Source of the DNA: an uncultured Candidatus Saccharibacteria bacterium
Lineage (GTDB): Bacteria; Patescibacteriota; Minisyncoccia; Phycocordibacterales; UBA12445
Direction of reading: 5' to 3'
Length of the DNA stretch: 64,000 nucleotides
Assembly: GCA_964531375.1 (NCBI GenBank)
Contig: CAZHDO010000004.1
Location: 147-64,146 of the forward strand
Of this stretch, positions 15,874-60,032 are shown piece by piece; positions within the stretch are counted from its first letter, which is position 1, and each line of letters begins with the position of its first letter. A program made the translations under genes and the position numbers. The notes beneath the pieces were generated by a model. It was given only the letters and a program-made list of their open reading frames with translations. It was not told where the DNA came from and searched no databases.

Positions 15874-17148
15874 TTATATTCCAAACCAAGATCTAAGGCG
15901 AAACCACCAGATATTCTTATTTACAACCGACTTTGATGGCCTATTGGTAGACGTGGCAAATTCATCAGTAGAGGTCACCCCTACTGATATTAAAGGGTTG
16001 AGCTTAAGAGTATCTTTAATTATTTCTTTTGGTGATACTTTAAGTTGGGTCTCAATTTTTTGGATTGGCATTTCTGGAGTTTCAGTCTTTTTTTCAACCT
16101 TAGGAGTCTCTGTGGAGGCTTTGTTGTTAATTTCATTTTGTTTATCAATCCTATTCTGTAGGTCTTGAATTTGATTCATAAGAACAGAGATTTGAGCTGC
16201 GACATCATTTTTCTTTTGTGTTGGTTGTATGGGCTGTACTTGTAAAGGTTGTATTTGTGGAGATTCTATCTGCGGGGGTGTTATCTGCATTGAACTTGTC
16301 AGAGGGTTAGTGGTTTTAGTTTTTAGCCCCCCTGATCTTTGCGCAGAAAGACTCTTTAGCTGAGGAATTGGGCTCTTGATTGTCCTTATAAACGAGGACA
16401 TCATTGATGGTGGGTCAAAAGAATTAAACCAATACTCTAGATTTTCTTTCGGGGATACAATTTCTGGGCGACCAAAAGGTTTGCCATAATACACAATATC
16501 ACCTTCGCTTAATTTTAATGATTTAATCTTTTGATTGTAATTAATTTTTTGAATTCTAACAGAATCAGAGTCACTTTGGTTTGTAAGAGGAAATAAAAAA
16601 TCATCGCTATTATAAATTGTCCATGCCCAACTATCTACATATTTTCCAATCAAATTTTCACACCAACCAAAATCCTCATACAGGGTGTTCTTCACAGAAA
16701 CCAAGGAGGTTCTATCTCCGCTTAATACCTGTTTGGTGCCCCACCCTGAAACATTCTTTGCAGAAAAACAAAGGGTTTTTAAATTTTCTACTGTAGGATT
16801 TTGAAGAAAAGCATCAATAATATTCAGCGAGCCAATCTCAATTTTAACCATATCAACAAACTCACTCTGTGGAATGTTTTCGTCAATGATTAAGGTTGCT
16901 GGTTTGAGTAGTGAGGCATTTCGTGAATTAGAGTCAAAAATAATTTCTTTTTCATCAGCTTTAGAGGTAGAAAAAAGGTCATTAACAGTATCTACCGCGT
17001 TAGACCACAACCCTGCGTGTACGGAAGAGGGGCATTGTAAAAATAAAAGGGTCGTAATGATAAGAAATGATAATTTATTTAGTTTGTTTTTCATATTTTT
17101 TATTCTTCCAAACAAAAAGCCCACCACATGAGTTAGTGACAAAGTCAC
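15874..17148 (-). CDS. secreted hypothetical protein with P/Q-rich linker
   Basis: Signal-peptide-like N-terminus; PQIESPQIQPLQVQPIQPTQ low-complexity linker. Confidence 0.4.
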   Translation of the reverse strand: MTLSLTHVVGFLFGRIKNMKNKLNKLSFLIITTLLFLQCPSSVHAGLWSNAVDTVNDLFSTSKADEKEIIFDSNSRNASLLKPATLIIDENIPQSEFVDMVKIEIGSLNIIDAFLQNPTVENLKTLCFSAKNVSGWGTKQVLSGDRTSLVSVKNTLYEDFGWCENLIGKYVDSWAWTIYNSDDFLFPLTNQSDSDSVRIQKINYNQKIKSLKLSEGDIVYYGKPFGRPEIVSPKENLEYWFNSFDPPSMMSSFIRTIKSPIPQLKSLSAQRSGGLKTKTTNPLTSSMQITPPQIESPQIQPLQVQPIQPTQKKNDVAAQISVLMNQIQDLQNRIDKQNEINNKASTETPKVEKKTETPEMPIQKIETQLKVSPKEIIKDTLKLNPLISVGVTSTDEFATSTNRPSKSVVNKNIWWFRLRSWFGI

Positions 17149-17369
17149 TCATACAAGTTTCCCTGTACGGCAGAACATGCAACCCCATATGATGGGTTCT
17201 TTATGCATGTTCTGACTCTTTTCACCATGCCTGACACTGTGCCAAGTTTAGGCTACTTATTATTAAATTGTCTGCCTCTCTAAAATACCACAAAAACAAG
17301 AAAATATCCAAAAAAATAAACAGTAACCCTGATATTGGATTACTGTTTATTTTTTCAATTTATTATATT

Positions 17370-51080: not shown

Positions 51081-54000
51081 CTACACTAAATAAGTATCAT
51101 CGGTGACATTATATCCATTAAAATCCGAACCACCGCCTGGCGTGTCCCAATTACCAACTAAAGAAATTTTTTTTAAATTCTTACTTTTTTCATCGAGGTA
51201 ATTATAAAGATTAGGCCTATTTGTAGAGGCACCCCCAGAATGGTCGTCTATTACAATCGCAAGTTTTCTATCTAGACCATCAGCTATTTTTCTAAAATAA
51301 GAAATCGTTTTGTCAAAAAAGTCACTGACAGATAGGGAATTTATAACATTTTCTAGTGGATTTAATCCTCTAATCACAAGAAGAGGTGTACCATCTCTTC
51401 CCTTAGTTTCAATAAGAATACATGCACCCGCCAACCTCTCATATTTTGTTCCCCTATGTTGCACCATAATCACAGCAGAAAAATTTGGGAATTGTGCAGA
51501 AATAGAGTCGTATTTTTCATTCCAACACGCATCGGCAATGTGCCCAGAAAACTCCATCAGCAAACCACGCGTCGGTATAAAATCAAAAGAGGTTGTTCCT
51601 ATATTTTCTTGATTTTGTGCCCTGAAGTACTCTTCCTTCAAAGCGCTTATGTTTATCAAACTATCAAGGGCCTTTTTTGAATTTTTGTCTTTAAAATATT
51701 TTTTCCATGTTTCTTCATTAACTATATGCTCAACAAAATTTACCACAACACCAACGTCTTCAAAACTTGGCTTATCTTTTTGTAATATATCGCTAATTTT
51801 ATCTCTATGATTTCTATGTTTATGAAGCGCCATAAAAAACAATATTTGTCTTAATGACTCCAAAAATTCTTTAATTTCTGCCATTTTGACGAAATTTTTT
51901 TCGAACTGCCTAATGTCTCGTAGGTTTAATGAATTTAAAAAATCTAGCTTAATTCTCAAATTTTCCAATGCTTTCGGATTTACTGTACTATTTATTTTTA
52001 TTTGCAAATCAGATATTACCTCAGAACGCTTTTCTTCTAACCCCTCAACTAAAAAAGAAAGCGGTGCCTTTTCTTGCAAAAGATAACCCGATTCTAATAT
52101 AGAATTTTTAATAGTTTCGTAACGTAATAAAAACTGTTCTGAATATTTAAATTTCTGTTGCGCATCCTTGTTAACCTTATTAATCTTCACCTCACCAGAA
52201 CTAACATACTTATCTCCAACTGGAACATATTCACCATGCTCCTTAAGCCAGGTAAATTCTCTTACTACTTCTTCAAAACTATTAACTTTATTCGGATAAC
52301 CATCATCATCCATGTAATTACCGAACTCGCTAGAATCAAATCGAACATAAGATTTAAGGTATTGAGCAAAAAACTCATTTTTTTCCAAAATTTTTTCATC
52401 AAAGTCTTGAGTAAGAACCTCCGCTTTAAACTTTAAAATTCGCTCGCGCAATTGCGACATCCCAGCCTCCCCCATTTTTGTAAGTCCAAAAGTTAAAAGT
52501 TCTTGCTCTGAAAGCTCGCCATCTTTAAGCCTTCTTACAAATTTATATAAATCAACCGTAAGGTAAGTATCAAAAAGCTCGTTACAGAATAATATTTCTT
52601 TGTCGAGTGGAGGGTTAAAATATTCCGACATTTCTACAAGCCTATCTAAGTTCTGTGTGGTGTTAATATTTTCAACACCCTTCTTGTAAACTTCCTCGCA
52701 AACACTACGATCAAAATTTATTTTACCACTCAGAGATTTAAAGTTATCAATAATAGCACGCCACTCACCCGCCCTCGAAGATTGCGCAATAATATCTTCA
52801 TAATTTACTCCCTTAAGATTATTCAAATGACTTATTAAATCCTTAAATTTACCATCTCTTATGGCTATGCCTACTATCTTTCTATGGTCTAAATTTGGAA
52901 ATTTATCTAAACTATACAATATATCAGCTACACCACCGCTATTAATTACCTCCTCTCCTACTTCATTAATATTAACATCCAAAAAATAATTAATGTTACT
53001 ACACAAAGACCTAAAAAATGATTTTTTAATTAACATTTCCACAAGCTTTCTGTCTAGGGCGAATTTCTTTTCTTTCCAACTTGAAATAAAATCATATTCA
53101 TTTTCACGTTCCAAATACCCCAAAGCTTTTTCAAAATCATTAATTGTGAGATCTTTGAAAATACTCAACTTACAAGCAGCTTTCTTCGGATTAGCTTCTA
53201 GCAAATATTTAAATATTTTAGGAAATTTTCTAAATTGCCAACCCTTTTCGAGCACGTAATCGACACCAGCATACTGTACTATCTTTTTTGATAATTCTTC
53301 ATCAACTTTATAATATTTCGCAAAAAAATCTATATCCTCCTCCTTAACTCTTTTTATAGTTAAATGCAAAATAACATCTTTATCAATTTTATTTATTAAG
53401 TATTTTGTTAATTTTTTTGGATATTTTTCGGCCATTTTTCCTAAAATGTCCTCAGGAATTTTTTCGCACCATAATTTTGGCAAATATTCCAAACCCTCAA
53501 CCATTATCTGTAATTCATTATGTTCAAATATTTTTTTATATGATTCTGCAACATTAATATCTTTAAAATTATTCAATAATTCAAAATCTTTTGCCTCAGC
53601 AAAAACAGCGTTATCTAATATTTTTTTCCAATATTTTTTATTAATATTATTAATATGCCCAAAGAGAGAAGGCGTATGCTTGTATAAAATACACAAATCA
53701 ATTAATTTTGATTCACTAATTTGACTAAAACTAGCCGTGTTTTGAAAAATTACTTCTGGGTGATATCTAGCAAACCAATCAACCACAAAATCGTCAGAAA
53801 TAGCACCAAAAGCCTTAACCAGATTATCCAAAGAACTTTTATAACTTACTCCGTACCTTAAACTATTAATAATTTCTCTATGCGATTCACTGGGTATTTT
53901 ACCCATCTTATCTATATGCTTTAAAAAATATTGAACATCTTTTTTAAGTAAAGCGCTTATTATTTTCATCTTAAGCGGTTTTGGAATTATTTCATCTATT

Positions 54001-54251
54001 TTAAGACGACTATCATCATCAACCTTTTCACCAAGAAAAAAAGAAACCAAAGGGCCTATTAAACTACGCAGATCATATTTTTCCGCATTTGAAATTTTCA
54101 ATGATTTTATTTTTGATTCAGACAATATTTGAGATATTTTTTGAAAAATTTCTTTATTAATCGATTCTTCTGATTCAGGTAACACAACGACTTGTTTCTT
54201 CTTAAAAGTATTATTATTTTTTATATTTTCCATTTTATTTAAAATTATCAC
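51081..54251 (-). CDS. large (1056 aa) hypothetical cytoplasmic protein
   Basis: Long ORF with no recognisable motif; K/E-rich helical repeats and a distinct C-terminal ~200-aa domain. Confidence 0.4.
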   Translation of the reverse strand: MIILNKMENIKNNNTFKKKQVVVLPESEESINKEIFQKISQILSESKIKSLKISNAEKYDLRSLIGPLVSFFLGEKVDDDSRLKIDEIIPKPLKMKIISALLKKDVQYFLKHIDKMGKIPSESHREIINSLRYGVSYKSSLDNLVKAFGAISDDFVVDWFARYHPEVIFQNTASFSQISESKLIDLCILYKHTPSLFGHINNINKKYWKKILDNAVFAEAKDFELLNNFKDINVAESYKKIFEHNELQIMVEGLEYLPKLWCEKIPEDILGKMAEKYPKKLTKYLINKIDKDVILHLTIKRVKEEDIDFFAKYYKVDEELSKKIVQYAGVDYVLEKGWQFRKFPKIFKYLLEANPKKAACKLSIFKDLTINDFEKALGYLERENEYDFISSWKEKKFALDRKLVEMLIKKSFFRSLCSNINYFLDVNINEVGEEVINSGGVADILYSLDKFPNLDHRKIVGIAIRDGKFKDLISHLNNLKGVNYEDIIAQSSRAGEWRAIIDNFKSLSGKINFDRSVCEEVYKKGVENINTTQNLDRLVEMSEYFNPPLDKEILFCNELFDTYLTVDLYKFVRRLKDGELSEQELLTFGLTKMGEAGMSQLRERILKFKAEVLTQDFDEKILEKNEFFAQYLKSYVRFDSSEFGNYMDDDGYPNKVNSFEEVVREFTWLKEHGEYVPVGDKYVSSGEVKINKVNKDAQQKFKYSEQFLLRYETIKNSILESGYLLQEKAPLSFLVEGLEEKRSEVISDLQIKINSTVNPKALENLRIKLDFLNSLNLRDIRQFEKNFVKMAEIKEFLESLRQILFFMALHKHRNHRDKISDILQKDKPSFEDVGVVVNFVEHIVNEETWKKYFKDKNSKKALDSLINISALKEEYFRAQNQENIGTTSFDFIPTRGLLMEFSGHIADACWNEKYDSISAQFPNFSAVIMVQHRGTKYERLAGACILIETKGRDGTPLLVIRGLNPLENVINSLSVSDFFDKTISYFRKIADGLDRKLAIVIDDHSGGASTNRPNLYNYLDEKSKNLKKISLVGNWDTPGGGSDFNGYNVTDDTYLV

Positions 54252-55106: not shown

Positions 55107-55832
55107 CTATGTAACCATAGCTATAAGTTTTTCTTTCCAACCGTTTAAGAATTTATTTCCAGGGCAAGTTGTTTTGAGATTAACTTCTCTGTGTCCCTTA
55201 ATATTTTCTGGACTAATTCGTGGATAATGTTCTTTAATAAGTTTTACAATCGCCGAAAGAACAAGATCGGACGGTGATGAGTTCTCAAAGTCATTATCCA
55301 AACATATTGCGACACTCCGGCAATTCACGTCCCAATTTCCAGCTTGCCAGCCGATTTCACCATCACCCAGCAATCTTTCAACAGAACCATCCATTCTTAC
55401 TAGCCAGTGGTAGGCATAAAAAACTTGTTCACTATCCTTAAAATGATTTGAATAGATTGCTTGTCCTTTTATATGTCTTTCTTTTTCATACAAGGTTGAA
55501 GCGTAATATGTCGCATAAAGGCGAATCAATTGCATTGCACTTAATCTTTGCCAAGTAATACCTGGTGAATTTTTAGTGTGGTGAATTACTATGATATCAA
55601 CGGATTTTCTTTCCTCATCCCAATTTGGACCATCTTTTCCTAATGCGATGCTTTTATTTTTAATATGGCGCTCAAAAAACTGGTAGAGTTCCTCCTTTAT
55701 TTCTTTTGACATCTCCAAACTACTTTCCTCAGCCTTCTTTATTAAATTTTTGTAATCGTCGGAAATTTGCAAATACCAATCGTTGTATTTTATAGCTTTT
55801 ATCCATTTGTTTTCATCAAAATATTTCGCCAT
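55107..55832 (-). CDS. N-acetylmuramoyl-L-alanine amidase (Amidase_2/PGRP fold)
   Basis: VDIIVIHHTKNSPG and C-terminal GHREV...TTCPG Zn-ligand pattern. Confidence 0.55.
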   Translation of the reverse strand: MAKYFDENKWIKAIKYNDWYLQISDDYKNLIKKAEESSLEMSKEIKEELYQFFERHIKNKSIALGKDGPNWDEERKSVDIIVIHHTKNSPGITWQRLSAMQLIRLYATYYASTLYEKERHIKGQAIYSNHFKDSEQVFYAYHWLVRMDGSVERLLGDGEIGWQAGNWDVNCRSVAICLDNDFENSSPSDLVLSAIVKLIKEHYPRISPENIKGHREVNLKTTCPGNKFLNGWKEKLIAMVT

Positions 55833-56089
55833 AATTAAAATTATATTACATTCAATCGATTCTTAAAACCGTTTGATTACTTAATAAAATTAGGAACAAA
55901 GAGTGGGATTCGGTCACGGATATTTTTTTGCAGAAAAATTCCTCGAAGTCCGTCAGTTGCGACGGACACCTGTAGACGGCCCACACAGCTCCTTTTCTTG
56001 CAGAAAGGGACCCGCTTCCGTCTTTCGAAGCCCACCTTCTCGCGCAAAATACAGTCATAAAACGCTTTCTCATTTTATTCATTATTTTA

Positions 56090-56176
56090 CGGAGAGAGTG
56101 GGATTCGAACCCACGGTTCCGATAAAGGAACGACAGTTTAGTAAACTGTTGATATAAACCACTCATCCATCTCTCC
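56090..56176 (-). tRNA. type II (long variable arm) tRNA, Ser-like; anticodon reads ACU in my fold (unusual)
   Basis: Minus strand: acceptor GGAGAGA/TCTCTCC; D-stem GATG/TATC; anticodon stem ACAGT/ACTGT; loop TTACTAA; long variable arm CGTTCCTTTATCGGAACCG; T-arm GTGGG-TTCGAAT-CCCAC. Confidence 0.7.
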
Positions 56177-56249
56177 AGATGATTTAGACAATATACAATA
56201 TATTAAAAAATAATTCTAGAAAAAACGAGGGTAAATAATTTAGTAAAAT

Positions 56250-56525
56250 TTATTCAACAATATCCATATTAACAATCATCCCTTTAGGAATAAAATAAAA
56301 AGTTGGGTCTTTTTGAGGGTGTTTTTTGTTTGTTTCAATATTAATAGTTTTAGGGTCTTTGATAATTATCCCCTCTTCGGAATCTTGAACCAAAACACCA
56401 TTAGTTTCCATTTTAGTAAGCTTGGCATTATTTGTGTTTTTCGATTTAGAAAAAGACCTATCAGCTGGATATATAACAACAGCGTCGTTCCATAATATTT
56501 TTACTTTCTTTCCTATATTACTCAT
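56250..56525 (-). CDS. hypothetical protein (tandem paralog 2)
   Basis: Shares the ILW(N/R)DA motif with the adjacent ORF. Confidence 0.3.
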   Translation of the reverse strand: MSNIGKKVKILWNDAVVIYPADRSFSKSKNTNNAKLTKMETNGVLVQDSEEGIIIKDPKTINIETNKKHPQKDPTFYFIPKGMIVNMDIVE

Positions 56526-56832
56526 TATAATTACCTATTTTTCTAAATTCTAAAATCGTTTTTCCTGGCACGATAAAACCATCTACCATAGACATAGCGC
56601 CAGTCTTATCATCATAAGAAACATTGGTCGCAATCACAGTATAATCATCATTTGTTTCCATAATAAAGCCTGTGGTTAATTGCGGTAATGGTAAAATTTC
56701 CGGCATTTTTTGCATAAAGGTATAAGAAGCATCTCTCCATAAAATAGTACAAATTGGATCATTTTTCTTTTTCATATGCGTAAATATAACACAAAAAATC
56801 AAAAACGCCTTTAGCCGGATGGATTCGGTCAC
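56518..56832 (-). CDS. hypothetical protein (tandem paralog 1)
   Basis: TILWRDASYTF...; overlaps the next ORF by 8 nt. Confidence 0.3.
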   Translation of the reverse strand: MTESIRLKAFLIFCVIFTHMKKKNDPICTILWRDASYTFMQKMPEILPLPQLTTGFIMETNDDYTVIATNVSYDDKTGAMSMVDGFIVPGKTILEFRKIGNYNE

Positions 56833-57040
56833 GAGTTACTAAGTCTGCTCACACTGCTTTGCAATATTGTGCGGACTAAGTACTCTCGATCCTTACAGGA
56901 TCAGTACACCTTTTGGACTTTTTCATTCGCTTTGCTCTAAAAAATTCTCAAGAAGGTTCTTCGCTATTCGCTTTCGCGGCTCAGCCCGCCTCGCCCCCCC
57001 CCTTTTTCTTGCAGAAAGGGGCCCGGCTGTGGCTTTCGAA

Positions 57041-57090
57041 TCCATCCAGCACTCGAAATTAACCACTAAAATATTTCATATTTTAGTGGT
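57041..57090. repeat. perfect long hairpin (19-bp stem aaattaaccactaaaatat / atattttagtggttaattt, loop ttca)
   Basis: Exact inverted repeat read directly from the sequence. Confidence 0.8.
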
Positions 57091-57365
57091 TAATTTCGGA
57101 GCCGGATGGAATTTCTCTCCTTACAGGAGCAGTATCACAGATATTTTTCTGCAGAAAAATTCTTCGACCCCAACTCACTCGTCTTCACTCGCTCCGTCTT
57201 TGAAATGCTACCTGTCGTCGCATTTCAACCCCGATGGATTTTCTCTACGTCCTACGGACTATAAAAAATGCTCATCGGGGCTTCGAATCCATCTCGCAAG
57301 ACATTTAGTATGTCTTGCTCGGCTCCATATTTAAAAAAACCGCAATATCGCAGTTTTTTTAAATA

Positions 57366-57452
57366 CGGAGCCGGATGGATTCGAACCATCGAGGGCTTTT
57401 ACACCCTGCCTCTTTAGCAAAGAGGTACGTTAGACCACTCTGACACGGCTCC
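57366..57452 (-). tRNA. tRNA-Ser(GCU), type II
   Basis: Minus strand: acceptor GGAGCCG/CGGCTCC; anticodon stem CCTCT/AGAGG; loop TTGCTAA (anticodon GCT); long variable arm; T-arm GATGG-TTCGAAT-CCATC. Confidence 0.8.
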
Positions 57453-57779
57453 ACTTTATTTGATTATTAACTTAAAACAGCATTCTGGCAAAGAGGTACG
57501 TTAGGTCACGGATATTTTTCTGCAGAAAAATTCCGCTATCCTTACAGGATCAGTACACCTTTTGGACTTTTTCATTCGCCTTGCTCTGAAAAATTCTCAA
57601 GAAGGTTCTTCGCCTTTCGCTTTCGCGGCTCAGCCCGACTCGTTCACCATTACTCTCGCCCTTAATTTGCTTCAAGTATTCGCAAATTAACACTCTGACA
57701 CGGCTCCACTTTATTTGGTTATTTTCCTCAAAAACCTTGACTAGTATAGACTAAAACGTCCTTATCTACAAGCTTATGG

Positions 57780-60032
57780 GTGTTGTTTAACAAACCTAAA
57801 AAATTCTATTTAGTAGATATTTTTTGTACTAAATGTAGAATATATAGAATGGAACTTGATAAACCTATTGAAAAAGAATTCAGACTAAACCCTTACCAAA
57901 AGGAGGGGTTGTTAAAATTGGGGCTTGAAACCTTGTTGGACCTTTTATTCTACCTACCTTCCAGATATGGCGACAAAGGAGAATTAATGCACGTTACAGA
58001 TACAAAAAATGGCGAACTTGCGGTTGTTTGCGGAAAGGTGCTCAGCACAAAAATGTCGAAATCATATATCTCAAAAGTTCCAATGGCAGAAATGATGATT
58101 GAAGACGAAACGGGGAAAATAAAAGCAATTTGGTTCCATCAGCCGTATATGGCAAAAAAAGTTGCCGTGGGTAATTTTGCAAAGCTATCTGGGCAAATTT
58201 CAGAAAAAAATGGACAAAGAACAATGATTAATCCAGACATTGAAGAGGCTGAAAGTTTAGAAATAACCCACCACGGAAGCTTATTTTCAAAAGAGGAAAT
58301 TAGCTCGACTCCTGTTTATTCGGAAACAAAAGGAATTACATCGCTTTGGTTTCGTCACGTAATCGGCAAGCTTTTAAAGAACAAGCTTCATGAAAAAATT
58401 ATTGATCCTATTCCCGAAAATATTTTAAACAAATACCATCTCCCATCCATCCAAACAGCACTCGTCTGGATCCATGCGCCAAAGAAAGACGACGACGCAA
58501 AATCTGCAAGAAAAAGATTTTCTTTTGAAGAAGTTTTTTACATTCAACTTGCAAGGCAAAAAGAGAGAAGAGAATACGAAAGCAATCCATCTTTTAAAAT
58601 TTCGGCCAAAAGTGATATTGAAAATTTCAAAGGACGATTCGGTTTCAAAATGACAGAGGCGCAAGAAAACGCGATTAACCAAATAATCAATGACCTAAAG
58701 GGAGATAAACCAATGACAAGGCTTCTCGAGGGCGATGTCGGTTCTGGAAAAACAGCAGTCGCAGCCACAGCCGCCTTTGGGGTAATAAGCACAAGTCCAT
58801 ACAAAAAATCAACATTCGGTGAATTCGGAAATCTTCAAGTCGCCTATATGGCTCCGACCGAAATTCTTGCGAATCAACATTTTGAATCGTTCATAAAATA
58901 TTTTAAACACACAGGCATCAATGTCGGTCTTATTACAGGAAGCGGATGCAAAAAATTCCCTTCAAAAATAAACCCTGAAGGCTGGACGACGATTTCTAGA
59001 GCTCAAATACTAAAATGGGTTGCAAACGGAGAAATACCGATACTAATCGGCACACATTCTCTTATTCAAAAAACAGTTAAATTCAAACATCTGGGACTTG
59101 TAATAATAGACGAACAACATAGATTTGGAATAGAACAGAGACTAAAACTCGCCAAAAAAAGCTCTGATTTTATAGAGGGAAAAGCCTCGCCAGTTCCCCA
59201 CTTTCTTTCTATGACCGCGACGCCCATACCAAGAACACTTGCACTTACAATATATGGAGACTTAGACTTAACGCTTCTTGACCAAATGCCAGCAGGAAGA
59301 AAGCCGATAATCACAGACATAGTTCTCCCCGCCCAAAGAAATGGTGTTTATGAAAAAATAAGGAGCGAACTTGAAGCAGGAAGACAGGCTTACATTATAT
59401 GTCCAAGAATAGACGAGCCAGATCCAGACAAAGAATTAGCACTAAATGCAAAATCAGTAACAGCTGAAGCCAAGAGACTCAAAAAGGACGTTTTTCAAAA
59501 ATACGAAATCGGAATTTTACATAGCAAAATGACTCCAAAAGAAAAAGAGTCAGTAATGGACGAATTTTCAAAAGGGAAAATTAATATATTAGCAGCCACG
59601 TCTGTGGTGGAGGTTGGTGTAAACGTCCCAAACGCAACCTCAATAATCATCGAAGGCGGAGAAAGATTTGGACTATCACAACTCCATCAACTTAGAGGTA
59701 GAGTTTTAAGAAGCAACCACCAAGCTTATTGCTATATTTTTAGTGAATCAAAAACAGAAAAGACAAGAGAAAGATTAAAAGCAATCAAAACAGCCAAAAA
59801 CGGATTCGAATTGGCAGAAATGGACCTGCAGTTACGTGGTTTTGGCGAGCTATCTGGTGGCAAACAATGGGGTATTTCTGATATCGGAATGGAAGCAATA
59901 AAAAATTTAAAAATGGTAGAAGCGGCCAGAAATGAAGCAAAAGAAATTCTCGACACTGACCCCAAAATAGACAGACACCCACTATTAAAAGAAAAAATAA
60001 AAAGAATAAACACAGAAACCCATTTTGAATAA
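57780..60032 (+). CDS. recG: ATP-dependent DNA helicase RecG (start possibly at MELDKP about 57850)
   Basis: Wedge/OB N-terminal domain; Walker A GDVGSGKT; DEAH-like IIDEQHRFG; motif MTATPIPRTL; helicase C-domain QLHQLRGRV. Confidence 0.9.
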   Translation: MLFNKPKKFYLVDIFCTKCRIYRMELDKPIEKEFRLNPYQKEGLLKLGLETLLDLLFYLPSRYGDKGELMHVTDTKNGELAVVCGKVLSTKMSKSYISKVPMAEMMIEDETGKIKAIWFHQPYMAKKVAVGNFAKLSGQISEKNGQRTMINPDIEEAESLEITHHGSLFSKEEISSTPVYSETKGITSLWFRHVIGKLLKNKLHEKIIDPIPENILNKYHLPSIQTALVWIHAPKKDDDAKSARKRFSFEEVFYIQLARQKERREYESNPSFKISAKSDIENFKGRFGFKMTEAQENAINQIINDLKGDKPMTRLLEGDVGSGKTAVAATAAFGVISTSPYKKSTFGEFGNLQVAYMAPTEILANQHFESFIKYFKHTGINVGLITGSGCKKFPSKINPEGWTTISRAQILKWVANGEIPILIGTHSLIQKTVKFKHLGLVIIDEQHRFGIEQRLKLAKKSSDFIEGKASPVPHFLSMTATPIPRTLALTIYGDLDLTLLDQMPAGRKPIITDIVLPAQRNGVYEKIRSELEAGRQAYIICPRIDEPDPDKELALNAKSVTAEAKRLKKDVFQKYEIGILHSKMTPKEKESVMDEFSKGKINILAATSVVEVGVNVPNATSIIIEGGERFGLSQLHQLRGRVLRSNHQAYCYIFSESKTEKTRERLKAIKTAKNGFELAEMDLQLRGFGELSGGKQWGISDIGMEAIKNLKMVEAARNEAKEILDTDPKIDRHPLLKEKIKRINTETHFE

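Follow-up and report, generated by a model that had tools for sequence, protein, structure and literature searches.

The 64,000-nt window analysed here (the whole of the stretch of contig CAZHDO010000004.1 presented above) carries, around two serine tRNA genes, a tangle of tRNA fragments, palindromes and direct repeats which very probably represents a single element family, four members or variants of which (units A to D) cluster here. The reading we consider best, and which is rather probable, is that these are non-autonomous structured insertion elements targeting the T-loops of tRNA genes, and on balance we would frame the family as a mobile insertion element and not as a host-functional RNA. 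The family encodes no protein, spans about 100–250 nt, sits in the trailers and occasionally in the leaders of tRNA genes, and is absent from the databases and papers that we searched. Duplicated target ends, the variety of targets and the occurrence of truncated and mosaic copies suggest insertion events of a non-autonomous element, as do the 60% of copies with decayed repeats. Sequence comparison also supports the tRNA fragments as genuine duplications of the kind left by insertion at tRNA genes.

A 23-nt motif common to the window and a related locus (L006), CAAAAGGTGTACTGANNNTGTAA, was scanned on one genome per species and found in at least 119 stretches, where by our own estimate about one chance match is expected in the collection for its 20 specified bases. 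Of these stretches, 117 are labelled as Patescibacteria or Parcubacteria lineages (Patescibacteria, Parcubacteria, Paceibacterota, Kaiser-, Taylor-, Nomura-, Vogel-, Lloyd- and Zambryskibacteria) or belong to unlabelled metagenome-assembled genomes (MAGs). The motif is also carried by L106 and L124, labelled Patiriisocius (Bacteroidota) and Acidimicrobiales, which are probably mis-binned Patescibacteria contigs, the alternative being lateral spread. The first copy set was anchored on the exact 23-mer and its conservation there is partly by construction, which is corrected in part by some 38 further, more divergent copies that a covariance model found in the same loci. The 23-nt core motif had no match in 2.9 million viral contigs. 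In Rfam 15 no family corresponds to the element, either at the gathering threshold or at E <= 10 across 55700–57900, or at the gathering threshold in 15 loci; the matches obtained were to tRNA, rRNA and LOOT, plus chance miRNA-like hairpin matches on a 21-bp hairpin, and the element is undescribed in the full-text literature searched. We clustered 884 open-reading frames (ORFs) within 2.5 kb of the elements in search of a protein partner, and housekeeping neighbours alone recurred (TypA in 15 loci, L19, YraN-like, PilM and RbfA, with a few GIY-YIG proteins).

The copies are strictly oriented with respect to tRNA genes. Within 300 nt downstream of a same-strand tRNA lie 78 of 128 copies (61 within 150 nt), 31 anticodons are represented, and no opposite-strand tRNA occurs within 200 nt of any of the 128. 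The 3' flank exactly repeats at least 14 nt of sequence located at most 400 nt upstream in 40 of 101 copies, compared with 1 of 98 in the control. These repeats are mostly 20–26 nt long (full range 14–45 nt), and most begin at or next to T54 and end 1–4 nt past the discriminator of the intact tRNA, in the same orientation, the downstream copy often being an exact duplicate of the 3' end of an intact tRNA gene 50–90 nt upstream. Read by eye among 40 spacers, the typical order runs from the tRNA through an A-tract/hairpin/T-tract hairpin, GUG with an acceptor-5'-like strand, AAG, a hairpin designated P0 (its loop often YGGGR), CG, a 5' arm and the core, and then through T-loop, T-stem, acceptor 3' strand, N73 and CA(C/A). 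The strand ahead of P0 pairs more strongly with its own tail than with other tails (-11.9 vs. -9.5 kcal/mol, p = 1.6e-4). In a duplex-energy test about 30% of copies have closing stems of 8–12 bp, an acceptor-like stem being present in a minority of copies, and a perfect 7-bp acceptor stem is found in ~14% of short forms vs. 5.7% in the control, a weak enrichment. The targets extend beyond tRNA genes and their trailers: in L034 and L041 the element lies behind a protein gene whose last ~15 nt are repeated after it (15 nt in L034), in L088 (640–1120) it adjoins a partial 5S rRNA duplicate, in L043 (3690–5785) it occupies the 16S-tRNA spacer of an rRNA operon, and in L075 it lies inside a 5'-partial tRNA copy (a partial duplicate of the anticodon stem) upstream of the intact gene, an arrangement like that of unit D.

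The core is a three-way junction formed by helix P2, with an inner hairpin P2a, and helix P3. Tandem G.A pairs mark P2a (UGAG-n-loop-n-CGAA), P3 carries a GUA triloop whose closing pair covaries (U-A, C-G, G-C), and the conserved single-stranded positions are AA(A/G)A before P2, a GAG...C internal loop and the junction (U/G)GUACUG. In 98 distinct cores pairing extends to 93.3% of cells, covariation scores 0.417 compared with 0.109 in column shuffles that ignore phylogeny (0 of 500 reach it) and 0.05–0.11 with the partners slid, and double changes occur at all nine P2a pairs and at three P3 pairs. The motif search had fixed P2, which was therefore checked in copies found without the motif, and in these divergent copies it covaries (CCUUUUG/CAAAAGG, CCCGAUUG/CAAUCGGG, CUCGUUG/CAACGAG, GGUUGUC/GACAACC). 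The closing helix, P1, links the element to its target: the 5' arm consists of the T-stem 5' strand plus the complement of the seven T-loop bases, and its pairing partner downstream is the copied T-loop, T-stem 3' strand and acceptor 3' strand of the tRNA. P1 covaries with the local T-loop variant (TTCGAAT, TTCAAGT, TTCGATT, TTCGAGT and others), double changes number 58 at its pair 10-101 and 31 at pair 12-99, and the fit of an arm is closer to its own flank than to others. In the long forms (window units B and D, L030, L044, L049, L075, L088 and L122) the core gains two hairpins on the 5' side and, on the 3' side, a 32-nt hairpin with UGAC after it; the design of this 3' hairpin recurs in seven loci with wholly different stems and a loop of AGCA, UGCA or ACCA. 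Because G.T pairs outnumber A.C pairs in the helices by 37 to 14, the fold belongs to the tRNA-sense strand. Several known structures were compared by eye: the hammerhead shares CUGA, the following NGA being absent here, and none of the SRP (signal recognition particle) Alu UGUAAU turn, dif/Xer sites, IS200/IS605 ends, retron a1/a2 stems or retroviral primer-binding sites matches all features. A T-loop pentaloop was ruled out, as the loop-closing positions covary as Watson-Crick pairs and give the GUA triloop.

In this part of the window the tRNA-sense strand is the minus strand (Table 1). B and D represent the canonical long form, C a tRNA-like variant lacking an anticodon, and A a reduced variant. 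One layout is common to units A, B and C, an inverted copy of a tRNA 3' end, a body of 110–210 nt and a direct copy of the same end (for example GCTGGATGGATTCGAA inverted and CGAATCCATCCGGCT direct, the 14-nt arms of unit B giving a 93% inverted match), and their predicted folds are multi-helix junctions shut by P1. The bodies are mosaics of common modules, namely a 105-nt repeat (B and D), a palindrome unit (A, C and D) and a TGTAA-loop hairpin (B, C and D); one conserved element supplies the helices seen as the 105-nt repeat, the 18-bp palindrome and the GTCACGG unit. A core model with the GUAC junction and GUA triloop (R1) recovers B and D, and C weakly, in which the palindrome hairpin stands in P2's place, whilst A has no P2 core and no R1 match and retains the outer modules only (hp1 and the 3' hairpin). 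The minimum free energy (MFE) structure of unit C combines a 7-bp acceptor-like stem (GGAGCCG/CGGCTCC), P0 and P1. The same architecture is found in L006 ~1 kb downstream of its own tRNA-Ser, with two compensatory pairs in the P0 hairpin and a tail identical to the 3' end of that tRNA-Ser. The hairpin between tRNA-Ser(GCU) and unit C is terminator-like by eye and was not called by a terminator scan. Unit D is a 5'-partial tRNA-Ser copy broken in the D-loop, upstream of the intact gene, with the 18-bp perfect palindrome as the apex of its 3' hairpin module; a closing helix is lacking here (whole-unit fold z = -1.0) and likewise in L075. In a relative (L007, 5680–5720), 14 nt of the 5' end of tRNA-Ser(GCU) (AGCCGTGTCAGAGT) are repeated 17 nt upstream of it, and this copy stops at the D-loop position where the unit D fragment stops; the D-loop may be a second recurrent breakpoint. 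None of units A–D matches the tRNA covariance model, even at E <= 10, so they are not tRNA genes, whilst both intact tRNA genes exceed the 29-bit RF00005 cloverleaf threshold and have an ARAGORN call.

Table 1. Positions of the tRNA genes, element units and other features in the window
Feature	Position	Strand	Evidence or remark
tRNA-Ser(GCU), intact, type II	57366-57452	minus	ARAGORN; Rfam tRNA 45.1 bits
tRNA-Ser, anticodon ACU, intact, type II	56090-56176	minus	ARAGORN; Rfam 56.7 bits
Unit A, reduced, behind tRNA(ACU)	55900-56041	minus	MFE closed by arm:repeat, z = -3.25
Unit A 5' arm, GAGAAGGTGGGCTTCGAA	56024-56041	minus	
Unit A hp1 module	around 55994-56014	minus	
Unit A 3' hairpin and GTGAC	55913-55941	minus	
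Unit A repeat, CGAATCCCACTCT	55900-55912	minus	
Unit B, canonical long form	56813-57050	minus	MFE closed by arm:repeat helix, z = -7.1
Unit B 5' arm, GCTGGATGGATTCGAA	57035-57050	minus	
Unit B body	56828-57035	minus	homologous to L043
Unit B direct copy of tRNA-Ser 3' end, CGAATCCATCCGGCT	56813-56827	minus	
Unit B three-way-junction core	56888-56960	minus	R1 71.3 bits, E = 6e-14
Perfect 21-bp hairpin, P0 position of unit B	57054-57098	minus	family P0 hairpins precede the arm
Unit C, anticodon-less tRNA-like variant	57097-57326	minus	MFE z = -6.7
Unit C acceptor 5' strand, GGAGCCG	57320-57326	minus	
Unit C P0 hairpin, 9 bp	57296-57318	minus	
Unit C 5' arm, GATGGATTCGAA	57282-57293	minus	
Unit C multi-hairpin body, 171 nt	57111-57281	minus	
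Unit C degenerate core	57116-57164	minus	R1 weak match, 14 bits, E = 0.29
Unit C tail, TCCATCCGGCTCCG	57097-57110	minus	
A-tract/hairpin/T-tract hairpin between tRNA-Ser(GCU) and unit C	57327-57364	minus	inverted repeat
Unit D	57488-57707	minus	sequence; direct repeats; like layout in L075
Unit D, tRNA-Ser positions 1-17	57691-57707	minus	
Unit D long-form body, 186 nt	57505-57690	minus	
Unit D, tRNA-Ser positions ~20-36	57488-57504	minus	
Unit D three-way-junction core (P2, P2a, P3), within 105-nt repeat	57537-57609	minus	R1 66.4 bits, E = 7e-13
Unit D 3' hairpin module, GCGG-AATTTTTC-TGCA-GAAAAAT-A-TCCG-TGAC	57505-57536	minus	covarying stems elsewhere
Duplicated tRNA-Ser upstream (promoter-proximal) region, joined to unit D	57708-57732	minus	repeat, 88%
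Fragment agagtgggattcg	55900-55912		formerly placed at 55899
Fragment agccggatggattcg	56813-56827		formerly placed at 56805
Fragment ggagccggatgga	57098-57110		formerly placed at 57090
Fragment gcaaagaggtacgttag	57488-57504		formerly placed at 57478
ORF, 91 aa	56250-56525	minus	gene call on ENA source contig
ORF, 85 aa	56518-56775	minus	gene call on ENA source contig

A preliminary description of this DNA had noted most of the repeats, and all of those it listed are present and above chance, at coordinates that were overall off by 1–20 nt. ARAGORN and Rfam agree with it on two intact type II tRNAs, on the minus strand, at the positions it gave, and the tRNA 3'-end fragments exist at shifted positions. 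The 29-nt unit GTCACGGATATTTTTCTGCAGAAAAATTC, said to follow every fragment, occurs three times with at most two mismatches (at 55913, 57134 and 57505; 0 expected from 100 shuffles) and follows three of the four, the sequence after 56813–56827 having GGTCACG alone in common with it. The 18-bp palindrome, given at 57133 and 57494, lies at 57143–57160 and 57514–57531, and its imperfect copy occupies 55922–55939; the ~104-bp direct repeat is a 105-nt repeat of 95% identity at 56889–56993 and 57538–57642, again displaced from where it had been placed. The duplicated tRNA 5' end with its upstream segment (57436–57477 and 57691–57732, 88% identity) and the TTTCTTGCAGAAAGGGRCCCG repeat (at 55994 and 57005, none expected by chance) are present too. 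What the description did not contain is that each 3'-end fragment of units A–C has an inverted copy ~110–220 nt off, and these pairs form the closing helix. Scans with the palindrome unit (GAATTTTTCTGCARAAAAATATCYGTGA and a looser form) returned nothing in viral or genome contigs; the stem sequence is lineage-specific and the hairpin design alone is kept. The GC content of the units is 0.44–0.48 vs. 0.26–0.33 in the flanks. For this strain, Logan contigs assembled from short reads stop within the 105-nt repeat (window 57579–57585, the ends of L002 and L003): the elements break short-read assemblies.

Nor is the stretch wholly non-coding, as had been thought, since two small minus-strand ORFs are annotated as genes on the source contig. 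Both are located outside the units delimited by repeats, in the interval from unit B to tRNA(ACU), and neither matches Pfam or PHROG; the two overlap and by eye are apparently paralogous. The tRNA-Ser(GCU) gene is the target and donor for the Ser-type fragments and tRNA(ACU) is the origin of the unit A fragment. To our knowledge an ACU anticodon (Ser, A34) is very unusual in bacteria. The gene nonetheless looks like a real conserved one, because a homologue with compensatory stem changes is present in a Lake Mendota Paceibacteria MAG (L053, 4916–5003). The loci examined use tRNA-Arg(GCG) and none use ACG. RecG, which adjoins the region, has its affinity with the Parcubacteria/Paceibacterota group (nearest relative 78% identity), and the presence of a single LOOT RNA (RF03000; window 17135–17254, minus strand, 70.6 bits) supports this placement. 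A 1056-aa ORF without a Pfam domain (51081–54251, minus strand) has downstream of it a SHOCT-domain membrane protein and an Amidase_2 (endolysin-like) gene adjoining unit A.

As to how such an insertion element might move, the T-loop-complementary arm together with the strand bias points to T-loop recognition by pairing in a single-stranded intermediate. The arm would recognise the near-universal T-loop through base pairing, and movement would proceed via a single-stranded intermediate (RNA or single-stranded DNA) of the tRNA-sense strand. T-loop-specific tyrosine integrases reportedly exchange strands at the duplex T-arm. In the folded strand, P3 stacked on P1 would mimic such a duplex, the classical crossover site of T-loop-targeting recombinases, and integration catalysed in trans would leave the T54-to-3'-end repeat and keep one intact tRNA. 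Units B and D would then be intact long forms, and A and C decayed or rearranged copies. The excess of G.T over A.C pairs is compatible with a folded single-strand att site, and we offer this att-site-like mechanism with trans catalysis as a tentative model, more doubtful than the insertion reading itself. Less likely still is a new class of catalytic or guide RNA, in which an anticodon-less tRNA mimic, its acceptor copied from the neighbouring tRNA and its T-loop replaced by the three-way junction, would use its T-loop-complementary arm to direct its own T-loop insertion, or else the processing or exchange of tRNA 3' halves, without an element-encoded protein.

A number of observations weigh against the mobile-element interpretation. 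Copy pairs within a MAG are mostly 71–85% identical over 80–110 nt, which is unlike a recent burst of miniature inverted-repeat transposable elements (MITEs) and fits functional copies that are old and kept up one by one. The 5' end of the element has no sharp boundary, and the interpretation does not account for where the T-loop-complementary arm came from. No transposase, integrase or reverse transcriptase is enriched near the 119 loci. RecG homologues of 74–78% identity have completely different upstream regions, without synteny here; the preliminary description had proposed alignment to relatives, and this bears out that the region upstream of RecG varies, whilst no empty site or presence-absence polymorphism appears in the comparison with these non-syntenic relatives. 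By eye, a terminator-like hairpin usually lies between tRNA and element, and because of it co-transcription of the two is not assured. A host role is hinted at by a Taylorbacteria contig (L036, 4040–6680), in which an element follows each of four consecutive tRNAs (one copy divergent, with P2 CCGAUUG/CAAUUGG and loop GGUAC), and by the order tRNA-Ser(GCU), element, tRNA-Ser(ACU), which recurs in the distant genome L053.

These last two observations belong to the most serious alternative, to which we give a modest chance, namely a domesticated, host-functional tRNA-mimic RNA, either a small RNA gene or a cis-element of the tRNA transcription unit. Such a mimic would consist of an acceptor-like stem copied from the neighbouring tRNA, P0, and a T-arm whose loop is replaced by the three-way junction, and could take part in the processing or quality control of tRNA, or else be the substrate of an enzyme recognising the acceptor and T-arm, or a decoy for it. 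The full tRNA-like architecture seen by eye among 40 spacers argues for it, as do the preference of the pre-P0 strand for its own tail, the 7-bp acceptor stem in the fold of unit C, the L006 counterpart, whose acceptor is that of its own tRNA-Ser and whose P0 has compensatory changes, and the persistence of intact structure in copies that are old within their genome. Against this, the perfect acceptor stem is confined to the small fraction of short forms given above, the copies without an intact repeat look as decaying scars would, some elements follow protein genes or lie within partial 5S and tRNA copies, and mosaic or truncated forms such as units A and D exist. No promoter is evident, the terminator-like hairpin stands just upstream, and many tRNAs of the same genomes, including the tRNA-Met of the window, have no element.

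The preliminary description had suggested a graveyard of scars from repeated integrations or, alternatively, binding sites or structured small RNAs, and both alternatives hold part of the truth: the insertion duplications and the structured element stand, the eroded islands do not. Classically, attL/attR sites show as direct repeats of tRNA 3' ends that begin in the T-loop, and units A–C carry such repeats of tRNA 3' ends. The region upstream of RecG does vary among relatives, and tRNA gene fragments have been described as attR sites (PMC9897764). Yet only ~100–250 nt separate the repeats, no integrase gene or pseudogene is present in or near the units, the core motif is missing from the viral contigs, and a compensatory fold conserved between the repeats in more than 100 genomes cannot be yielded by independent erosion. 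The palindromes, as leftover protein-binding sites, fare no better, since their stems covary with the loop kept, which indicates a hairpin and not a duplex site. Ordinary integrase-carrying islands or prophages having left att scars at the two tRNA genes is thus very improbable and largely refuted already. Nor did a known Rfam family turn out to span the region, an outcome for which the preliminary description had allowed. Most improbable of the explanations considered is that the units are introns or intervening sequences, group I-like or of the bulge-helix-bulge type, spliced from tRNAs interrupted in the T-loop or D-loop. Unit D and L075 do lie precisely within tRNA sequence, the long forms at 145–210 nt come near the size of the smallest group I introns, and the 5' arm looks like an internal guide sequence. 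The interrupted copies are however partial tRNAs with an intact gene always adjacent (unit D holds positions 1–17 and 20–36 only), to the left of T-loop copies stands the loop's complement and not the 5' part of the tRNA, P1 is fully paired, hence no bulge-helix-bulge, and no group I or II match was obtained from Rfam even at E <= 10 across 55700–57900, or at the gathering threshold in 15 loci.

Much of bacterial diversity falls within the Patescibacteria, and their mobile DNA and non-coding RNA are almost unstudied. A covariation-supported structured element at tRNA genes in many Patescibacteria lineages, missing from Rfam, accounts for the clutter of tRNA fragments and palindromes otherwise annotated as junk or pseudo-tRNAs and for local assembly breaks. 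Should the element be mobile, base pairing would let it target, without a protein of its own, the most conserved loop in biology, and tRNA-gene targeting would gain a new model; should it serve the host, a new type of tRNA mimic would have come to light.

Among known systems, integrase islands with their attL/attR sites resemble the family in pairing an intact tRNA with a displaced 3'-end copy, running from the T-loop to past the discriminator in the same orientation. Here, in contrast, the insert of ~100–250 nt has no integrase or kilobase-scale cargo (no recombinase was found among the window ORFs or the clustered neighbours of the 119 loci), the targets comprise 31 tRNA species, protein-gene ends and 5S rRNA, and a T-loop-complementary 5' arm accompanies a conserved, covarying fold. 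Like MITEs, repetitive extragenic palindromes and bacterial interspersed mosaic elements (REP-BIME) and Rickettsia palindromic elements (RPE), the copies are small, non-coding, hairpin-rich, multi-copy mosaics, mostly intergenic, which break short-read assemblies. They differ in that the terminal inverted arms are target-derived and vary from copy to copy, the duplications are 14–45 nt and not 2–10 nt, the copies within a genome are diverged, the core junction is kept across families of the phylum and the copies keep a strict polarity to tRNA genes. A MITE is defined by inverted repeats common to all copies, a target duplication of short fixed length and copies that are nearly identical, and all three are missing. 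Within 2.5 kb of the 119 loci no Y1 transposase or RAYT gene, the partner of REP/BIME or IS200/IS605-derived palindromes, was found. With the tRNA-like domain of tmRNA, with YrlA, a bacterial Y RNA of tRNA-like character (PMC4201824), and with plant mitochondrial t-elements, some copies (unit C, L101, L035 and others) share an acceptor-like stem and a T-arm-like helix without an anticodon arm, whereas in the element the T-loop bases are paired, a three-way junction takes the place of the loop and the acceptor copies whichever tRNA lies upstream. ARAGORN called no tmRNA, and among the tmRNA and YrlA families of Rfam the sole match was a chance-level one to permuted tmRNA (13.7 bits, E = 5.4). 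LOOT (RF03000) is, like the element, a lineage-restricted, orphan structured motif of Patescibacteria known from comparative analysis, whilst the element, which Rfam 15 lacks, differs from it in fold and sequence and goes together with duplications of tRNA 3' ends. Integron attC and CTX-phage attP(+) sites, finally, are strand-specific hairpins whose stems imitate a duplex recombination site and in which structure is kept over stem sequence, a likeness suggested by the proposed stacking of P3 on P1, but in the element the junction and loop sequences are strongly conserved and the target is the tRNA T-loop.

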